Counted from the stretch's first letter, positions 21,741 through 22,891 are shown. The stretch: DNA of 64,000 nucleotides from Escherichia coli (GCF_044324875.1 NZ_CP172187.1), one strand, 5' to 3'. Translations and numbers: made by a program. The notes: generated by a model not told the origin, from the letters alone.

Positions 21741-22175
21741 ATGAAAACTGAACTGACCCTGAATGTCCTGCAGACCATGAACGCACAGGAATATGAAGAT
21801 ATCCGTGCTGCGGGAAGCGATATGCGCCGTAATCTCACTCACGAGGTGATGCGTAAAGTGGACGCACCGGCTAACTGGATGATGAATGGCGAGTATGGCA
21901 GTGAGTTCGGGGGCTTTTTCCCCGTCCAGGTTCGTTTCACGCCAGCCCACGAACGTTTTCACCTGGCGTTATGTTCACCGGGCGATGTCTCTCAGGTCTG
22001 GGTGCTGGTTCTGGTGAATGCCGGTGGTGAGCCGTTTGCGGTGGTTCAGGTGCAGCGGCGGTTTGCACCGGAAGCTGTCAGCCATTCACTGGCACTGGCG
22101 GCGTCACTGGATGCGCAGGGGTACAGCGTTAACGACATCATTCATATCCTGATGGCGGAAGGAGGTCAGGCATGA
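21741..22175 (+). CDS. psiB: plasmid SOS inhibition protein PsiB
   Basis: 144 aa, [27 protein letters not shown]... matches F PsiB from memory. Confidence 0.9.
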
Positions 22176-22891
22176 GCGCACGTTCACAGGCACTGGTTCC
22201 TCTCAGCACAGAGCAACAGGCCGCATGGCGGGCGGTGGCGGAGACCGAAAAACGCCGCCATCAGGGTAACACGCTGGCTGAATATCCGTATGCGGGTGCG
22301 TTTTTCCGCTGTCTGAACGGAAGCCGCAGGATATCGCTGTCTGACCTGCGATTTTTCATGCCGTCCCTGACCGCAGAAGAACTGCACGGCAACCGTCTTC
22401 AGTGGCTGTATGCCATCGATGTGCTGATTGAAACACAGGGCGAGGTCTGCCTCCTTCCCCTTCCCGGTGATGCAGCAGAGCGCTTGTTCCCGTCGGTGCG
22501 GTTTCGTGTCAGGGAACGCAGTCGCCATAAATCCGCGCTGGTCATGCAGAAGTACAGCCGCCAGCAGGCGAGGGAGGCAGAGCAGAAAGCCCGTGCGTAC
22601 CAGGCGCTGGTCGCTCAGGCTGAAATCGAACTGGCATTCCATTCGCCGGAAACAGTCGGAAGCTGGCATGCACGCTGGAGTGACCGGGTGGCAGAGCATG
22701 ACCTGGAAACCCTGTTCTGGCAGTGGGGCGAGCGTTTTCCGTCACTGGCCGGAATGGAACGCTGGCAGTGGCAGGATATGCCGTTCTGGCAGGTTATTGC
22801 GGAAGCCAGTCTTGCAGCAAGAGAGGCCGGTCACGCTGTCCGTGAGATGGAGCGGTGGATGGTGCCGAACAAACTCCGGGAGGCAGCGTGA
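22172..22891 (+). CDS. psiA: PsiA protein
   Basis: 239 aa; ATGA-coupled to psiB; size and position as in F-like plasmids. Confidence 0.85.

Follow-up and report, generated by a model that had tools for sequence, protein, structure and literature searches.

Gene content and organization of the psiB-psiA region

Two protein-coding genes, psiB and psiA, occupy positions 21741 to 22891 on the plus strand of the analysed DNA, a stretch of 64,000 nucleotides from Escherichia coli (GCF_044324875.1, NZ_CP172187.1) that is called the window below. With little doubt they are the classical psiB-psiA pair of a conjugative plasmid of IncF type, situated at the distal end of a Frpo2-ssb-yfjA-yfjB-psiB-psiA operon. 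The features relevant to the pair are listed here, with positions counted from the first nucleotide of the window.

15522 to 16169, minus strand: Frpo2/ssp1b-like single-strand promoter repeat, the second of three copies, shortly before ssb
16188 to 16226, plus strand: ssb exon 1, 13 codons, delimited by alignment to uninterrupted ssb
16227 to 18887, plus strand: group II intron in ssb, 2661 nt, with 5' GTGCG and 3' CCTAC ends
16840 to 18741, plus strand: RT-maturase-HNH ORF of the intron (Pfam RVT_1, Intron_maturas2, HNH)
18888 to 19376, plus strand: ssb exon 2, an ORF matching NF010292 at model positions 31 to 175 of 175
19405 to 19665, plus strand: DUF905 gene, yfjA homologue (PF06006, 1.1e-34)
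19729 to 21686, plus strand: ParB-like gene, yfjB/ParB2 homologue, frameshifted into ORFs of 232 aa and 426 aa
21697 to 21723, no strand: GC-rich perfect hairpin CCGCCCCG...CGGGGCGG, from a scan for terminator-like structures, within the 54 nt that separate the ParB-like gene from psiB
21726 to 21732, plus strand: Shine-Dalgarno sequence of psiB, AAGGGAG, with GGAG 8 nt before the ATG (read from the sequence)
21741 to 22175, plus strand: psiB coding sequence, 144 aa plus stop (frame 21738 to 22175 in the ORF list, ATG at 21741)
22161 to 22165, plus strand: Shine-Dalgarno sequence of psiA, GGAGG, within the 3' end of psiB and 6 nt from the psiA ATG (read from the sequence)
22172 to 22891, plus strand: psiA coding sequence, 239 codons and a stop; the start codon and the psiB TGA overlap as ATGA at 22172 to 22175
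22997 to 23329, plus strand: hok/sok (flm-like) toxin-antitoxin (Rfam sok RF01794, 88.9 bits; Pfam HOK_GEF, 1.1e-21), the downstream boundary of the psi genes
26366 to 26380, minus strand: oriT nick-region sequence of R1/R100 type (1 mismatch to the search pattern), flanked by the SLT gene and traM

The window is evidently a segment of an IncF-type plasmid, with the psi genes in a typical IncF leading region. The Frpo-like repeat (15522-16169) is followed by ssb with its intron (16188-19376), the DUF905 gene (19405-19665), the ParB-like gene (19729-21686), psiB and psiA. Downstream of psiA come hok/sok (22997-23329), a second Frpo-like repeat (23583-24232), a 95-aa ORF and a DUF932 gene, and beyond DUF932 an SLT transglycosylase gene on the minus strand, oriT, traM, traJ with FinP, and the tra operon up to traI. 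Gene order around the psi genes was the same in F, p2buct2930 and pEC958, and the psi region was present in more than 5000 PLSDB plasmids, the majority of them conjugative plasmids of Escherichia, Klebsiella, Salmonella and Shigella. Feature names had suggested a second psi copy in the window, which was discarded when the ORFs at 8.5-11.8 kb proved to encode a DNA methylase, DUF1380 proteins and an antirestriction protein.

The psiB and psiA genes

An intact psiB-psiA pair at 21741-22891 had been proposed in the first-pass annotation, and these limits were recovered exactly: psiB starts at the first of these positions and psiA ends at the last, both products matched their families over the full length and far beyond chance, and no internal stops or frameshifts were present in psiB (ORF list and raw sequence) or in psiA. 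No finding spoke against the identity of either gene. PsiB was 92% identical to the F record and 98% identical to the pEC958 allele, and PsiA was identical to F PsiA at 238 of 239 residues (the only change being A3V) and to pEC958 PsiA throughout (100%).

PsiB aligned end to end with Pfam PF06290 (1.5e-60, 203.4 bits against a cut-off of 25.2, model positions 1 to 139 of 139) and with the NCBIfam equivalog NF010255 (1.4e-82, 274.5 bits against a cut-off of 100, positions 1 to 144 of 144). The match to chain A of PDB entry 3NCT, 'Protein psiB', was 1.9e-87 at approximately 94% identity (9 differences in 143 residues), and from this near-identity the fold of the window protein would be that of the solved PsiB. 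An exact-sequence look-up found the same protein, under the same name, on 29 contigs in public collections. Relative to F, the allelic changes were E28M, E31N, A35E, E39K, L40V, D44A, T47M, S110P and T125A, which cluster at residues 28-47 with the exception of S110P and T125A. Among aligned natural PsiB alleles, M28, N31, V40 and M47 are the common states (at least 90%), as are E35 and A44 (70-90%), and K39, which might bear on PsiB function in this plasmid, is rare; at most of these positions F is thus the odd one out among natural alleles. At the DNA level psiB was a mosaic, with codons 9-68 and 104-144 of the pEC958 type and codons 73-82 of the F type, and it differed from F by 19 synonymous and 11 non-synonymous codon changes. 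The exact nucleotide allele was not present in any PLSDB record, the best match being 98.9%, and the mosaic is ordinary allelic shuffling. Nucleotide identity to F was 91.5% for psiB versus 98.6% for the adjoining psiA, so the two genes differ in their history or constraints.

PsiA matched Pfam PF06952 (8.5e-39, 133.6 bits against a cut-off of 25.3, positions 3 to 236 of 237) and NCBIfam NF010258 (4.8e-127, 422 bits against a cut-off of 243, positions 1 to 238 of 239). The psiA DNA of the window matched pEC958 psiA at every base, and at least 1000 contigs already carry the exact protein under the same name. Codon changes relative to F comprised nine synonymous and one non-synonymous, a ratio that indicates purifying selection on psiA. 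An AlphaFold2 model built from a 36-sequence alignment (pLDDT 86.8, pTM 0.56) was all-alpha with a 48-residue central helix. Nothing in the PDB matched this model at E <= 0.001 in Foldseek, the weak matches not being taken as homology, and a sequence search of the PDB with PsiA found nothing either. On the model, PsiA is predicted to be a conserved all-alpha protein.

Because the psiA Shine-Dalgarno sequence lies inside the end of psiB and the two reading frames overlap at ATGA, translational coupling of PsiA to psiB is implied as the probable arrangement. The hairpin at 21697-21723, upstream of psiB, has the same bases in F, and no T-run follows it on the plus strand. A simple scan of the plus strand between ssb and psiB, including the sequence just upstream of psiB, returned no sigma-70-like promoter. 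Three further ORFs over the psi genes, at 22184-22699 (minus strand), 21390-21962 (minus strand) and 22428-22934 (plus strand), had no family matches and were set aside as chance ORFs in GC-rich DNA.

Strand of transfer and the Frpo2-like repeat

The direction of transfer from an F-like oriT is established knowledge. With the nick-region sequence on the minus strand, this strand is the transferred one, entering 5' first toward lower coordinates, so that psiA enters before psiB, ssb and the Frpo2-like repeat (15.5-16.2 kb). By their location the psi genes occupy the place of the early-expressed leading-region operon of F-like plasmids.

The transferred (minus) strand of the Frpo2-like repeat folds into a hairpin of approximately 300 nt (roughly 15836-16141). 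As single-stranded DNA the repeat gave -140.7 kcal/mol, versus a mean of -88.3 for shuffled sequences (z = -10.25), and it aligned closely with the F region immediately upstream of ssb, ending at the ssb ATG. Inspection of the hairpin by eye gave no confident assignment of -35 and -10 hexamers. The Frpo2 element of F, just before ssb, is needed for ssb, yfjA, yfjB and psiB to be expressed early in transconjugants, and as single-stranded DNA it forms a hairpin with promoter elements (PMC9849209); control of psiB by ssp1b/Frpo2 is also described in a 2026 preprint (bioRxiv 10.64898/2026.01.09.698686). Expression of the F leading genes is confined to the single-stranded phase, a matter of minutes (PMC9849209; bioRxiv 10.64898/2026.01.09.698686). 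From the match of the repeat to F, its folding and the lack of a sigma-70-like site between ssb and psiB in the scan, we infer that psiB and psiA would be transcribed from the Frpo2-like element on the incoming strand and switched off once its complement had been made.

Altogether, the window held three copies of a Frpo/ssi-type repeat of approximately 650 nt (12163-12811, 15522-16169 and 23583-24232). Over 300 nt the second and third copies shared 98% identity; their counterparts in F are Frpo2 and Frpo1, respectively. In related plasmids PGAP gives pieces of such repeats the name 'single-stranded DNA-binding protein, frameshifted', which looks like a mis-annotation. An Rfam match to AS-pc01, the antisense RNA of plasmid pHK01, was located just downstream of the first Frpo-like repeat (12932-13033, minus strand; 89.7 bits versus a gathering score of 79).

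Interrupted genes between the repeat and psiB

A group II intron follows codon 13 of the ssb gene and divides it in two; the start of the intron lies about 40-60 nt downstream of the Frpo2-like repeat. Domain V/VI of the intron was matched by Rfam RF00029 at 18767-18887 (67.4 bits), ending exactly at the junction with exon 2, and the GC content of the intron was 41-46% versus 57-60% in its flanks. A search for EBS/IBS pairing found only partial EBS1/EBS2-like complements (CCGAC versus exon GTCGG, and AAGAA versus TTCTT). Joining the exons in silico gave an in-frame junction and an SSB of 175 aa; the gene is interrupted, though not necessarily dead, and full-length SSB may be produced after splicing. 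The same arrangement of the intron in ssb was found in pEC958 and in 368 PLSDB records (query coverage of at least 80%), and published work refers to a 'putative group II intron' of IncF plasmids.

The ParB-like gene measured 1958 nt, versus 1959 nt in F, p2buct2930 and pEC958. Alignment to pEC958 located the difference to one C missing from a GCCGCC run near 20375, after which the frame ends at 20427; re-insertion of one C restored 652 aa with no stops. The ParB_N and HTH_ParB domains are found in the first of the two resulting ORFs only. This 1-nt deletion is either a real mutation or an assembly error, which one sequence cannot separate. The first-pass annotation had contrasted the intact psi pair with possibly impaired ssb and ParB-like neighbours, a contrast that is half right: it applied to the ParB-like gene, and for ssb splicing may still restore the protein.

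Both the intron and the yfjB frameshift lie between the Frpo2-like promoter and psiB. The frameshift leaves approximately 1.3 kb untranslated ahead of psiB, and the putative promoter on which psi expression would depend is 5.5 kb upstream. Given an Frpo2 element upstream of ssb and no local sigma-70-like promoter, transcripts of the psi genes would have to cross the intron and the frameshifted gene, and either of these could delay or reduce psi expression.

Other features of the window

An IS21-family element (istA/istB, ISSso4-like) was located at approximately 53474-56126, between traT and traD, with minus-strand ORFs at 53580-54578 and 54352-55998. It was 99.7-100% identical to copies elsewhere, no PLSDB record covered the junction, and the insertion may exert polarity on traD and traI, with consequences for self-transfer.

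Genes for a umuD-like S24 peptidase (145 aa) and a Y-family polymerase (423 aa; impB/mucB/samB family) were found at 4601-6309 on the minus strand, a putative plasmid-borne mutagenesis pair on the same plasmid as the predicted RecA inhibitor PsiB. In the UmuD family, the UmuD-like subunit needs activated RecA for its processing. At 546-2926 the cargo included a PTS EIIC/EIIB transporter gene (465 aa, minus strand) and a GntR/UTRA regulator gene (249 aa), and the plasmids closest to this end of the window came from chicken E. coli.

Proposed function and alternative explanations

In the scheme that we favour, the minus strand would enter the recipient 5' first from a nick near 26373. Once inside, the Frpo2-like repeat (about 15.8-16.1 kb) would fold into a long hairpin acting as a promoter on single-stranded DNA, and RNA polymerase would transcribe back toward oriT through ssb, yfjA, yfjB, psiB and psiA. 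PsiB would be translated from its own Shine-Dalgarno sequence and PsiA by coupling through the ATGA overlap. PsiB would then bind free RecA and prevent filament formation on the incoming single strand; with no RecA filament, LexA would remain uncleaved and the SOS response would stay low. Synthesis of the complementary strand would remove the hairpin promoter and end expression. PsiA may modulate PsiB or act elsewhere in establishment, and would not itself be an SOS inhibitor.

The identity and intactness of the genes, their order, the overlap, the strand polarity, and the presence and folding of the Frpo2-like element come from the window sequence itself. The RecA binding, the SOS inhibition and the early, transient expression in this scheme are those of homologues and would extend to the window genes by analogy. 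RecA binding and a block of the SOS response are known for PsiB of F and of pED208 (literature cited in PMC9849209 and PMC8406263). In pED208, PsiB together with SSB suppresses mating-induced SOS, and PsiB is also delivered as protein via the T4SS (PMC8406263). The gene psiB by itself gives the Psi phenotype (PMC8406263). By homology PsiB would therefore be an SOS inhibitor, and in published data PsiA appears not to be one. The term 'SOS-inhibition module' used in the first-pass annotation was accordingly found apt for PsiB and, for PsiA, a historical label only.

What PsiA does instead is the subject of a reading that is possible though not the one we expect, in which it acts outside SOS inhibition altogether, as an antagonist or timer of PsiB or as an unrelated establishment factor, so that a module named for SOS inhibition would be mislabelled in one half. 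This would agree with the pED208 results, where deletion of psiA did not raise mating-induced SOS and slightly lowered it, and where translocated PsiA had no effect (PMC8406263), as well as with the strong conservation of PsiA, its coupling to PsiB and a predicted fold that has no informative solved relative. Against this reading, no direct evidence exists of any PsiA activity or of a PsiA-PsiB interaction; moreover, the effect in pED208 is small, and the pED208 PsiA is a distant relative of the protein in the window. A strongly conserved PsiA that is co-translated with PsiB could, as one possibility, be a modulator of PsiB rather than an SOS inhibitor.

It is unlikely that the psi coding sequences, although intact, are silenced here, with transcripts from Frpo2 reaching psiB too late on account of the intron, the yfjB frameshift or a loss of transfer. 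The 2.66-kb intron nearly doubles the distance from promoter to psiB within a single-stranded phase that lasts minutes, the yfjB frameshift would break the coupling of translation and open the way to Rho-dependent polarity, no sigma-70-like promoter was seen locally, and the IS21-family insertion in the tra operon (traT/traD), with its junction absent from PLSDB, could end transfer. In favour of silencing is also the restriction of F leading-gene activity to single-stranded DNA (PMC9849209; bioRxiv 10.64898/2026.01.09.698686). Hundreds of plasmids with the intron in ssb nevertheless retain intact psiB and psiA, pEC958 among them. Both psi genes also have their own ribosome-binding sites, and the untranslated stretch of yfjB is rich in G, not in C (GC skew +0.13 to +0.17), and would as such be a poor Rho substrate. 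In addition, psiA shows no decay, and PsiB can also arrive as protein via the T4SS (PMC8406263).

In pEC958, PGAP (NCBI) flags psiA as 'frameshifted', a pseudogene that spans 763 nt (window 22172-22934; pEC958 locus 7669-8431), the PLSDB gene tables for F and p2buct2930 do not list psiA, and many PsiA variants in databases are 253 aa long and end in an alternative frame. These 253-aa forms derive from independent frameshifts at different sites, all of them into one long open alternative frame, which in the window is the ORF at 22428-22934; it is these products that are aberrant, and the PGAP flag most likely arose artefactually, by alignment to a reference of the 253-aa type. The notion that psiA is a pseudogene and the pair not intact, to which the flag on an identical pEC958 sequence, the missing table entries and the many 253-aa variants would lend themselves, was rejected as extremely improbable on the basis of the family match of a 239-aa product in one frame (NF010258), its near-identity to F, the occurrences of the exact protein and the origin of the 253-aa forms.

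Both psi genes are textbook genes, and both exact proteins were already catalogued; nothing new attaches to the pair as such. For annotation their value is that they mark the leading region of an F-like plasmid and fix the transferred strand. An anti-SOS gene has been kept intact here while two upstream genes of the same transcription unit were disrupted. Should these upstream lesions lower PsiB, more SOS, mutagenesis, and integron or prophage activation would be expected in recipients, and the question of PsiB expression would concern the intron and the frameshift rather than the psi pair itself.

The location of the intron directly behind a putative zygotically active single-strand promoter is a separate finding, and a mildly interesting one only. 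It would allow, as a speculation to which we attach low probability, that intron RNA and reverse transcriptase are made in the zygotic burst of each new recipient, with SSB, PsiB and PsiA depending on transcription across the intron and SSB also on its splicing; the intron would in that case ride conjugation to spread and might delay or lower PsiB enough to alter mating-induced SOS.

Comparison with known systems

[quoted passage not shown] 2021, PMC8406263) is the same cluster as that of the window. Its products are T4SS substrates, and mating-induced SOS is suppressed by its PsiB and SSB. The two differ in that pED208 belongs to IncFV and its proteins are divergent.

PsiB of F (3NCT; NF010255; PF06290) shares with the window protein its length of 144 aa, its position in the operon and its end-to-end alignment; the differences are the nine allelic substitutions in the window PsiB and the block mosaic of F-type and pEC958-type sequence in its gene. 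PsiA of F and pEC958 (NF010258; PF06952) has the same 239 aa, is nearly or fully identical, and likewise overlaps psiB at ATGA, the sole difference from F, A3V, being nothing of substance. Compared with the F operon Frpo2-ssb-yfjA-yfjB-psiB-psiA (Couturier et al. 2023, PMC9849209), the window differs by the 2661-nt intron after codon 13 of ssb and by the 1-nt deletion in yfjB. The order of genes is the same in both, with a promoter-like repeat directly before the ssb ATG and, downstream, hok/sok and a second, Frpo1-like repeat.
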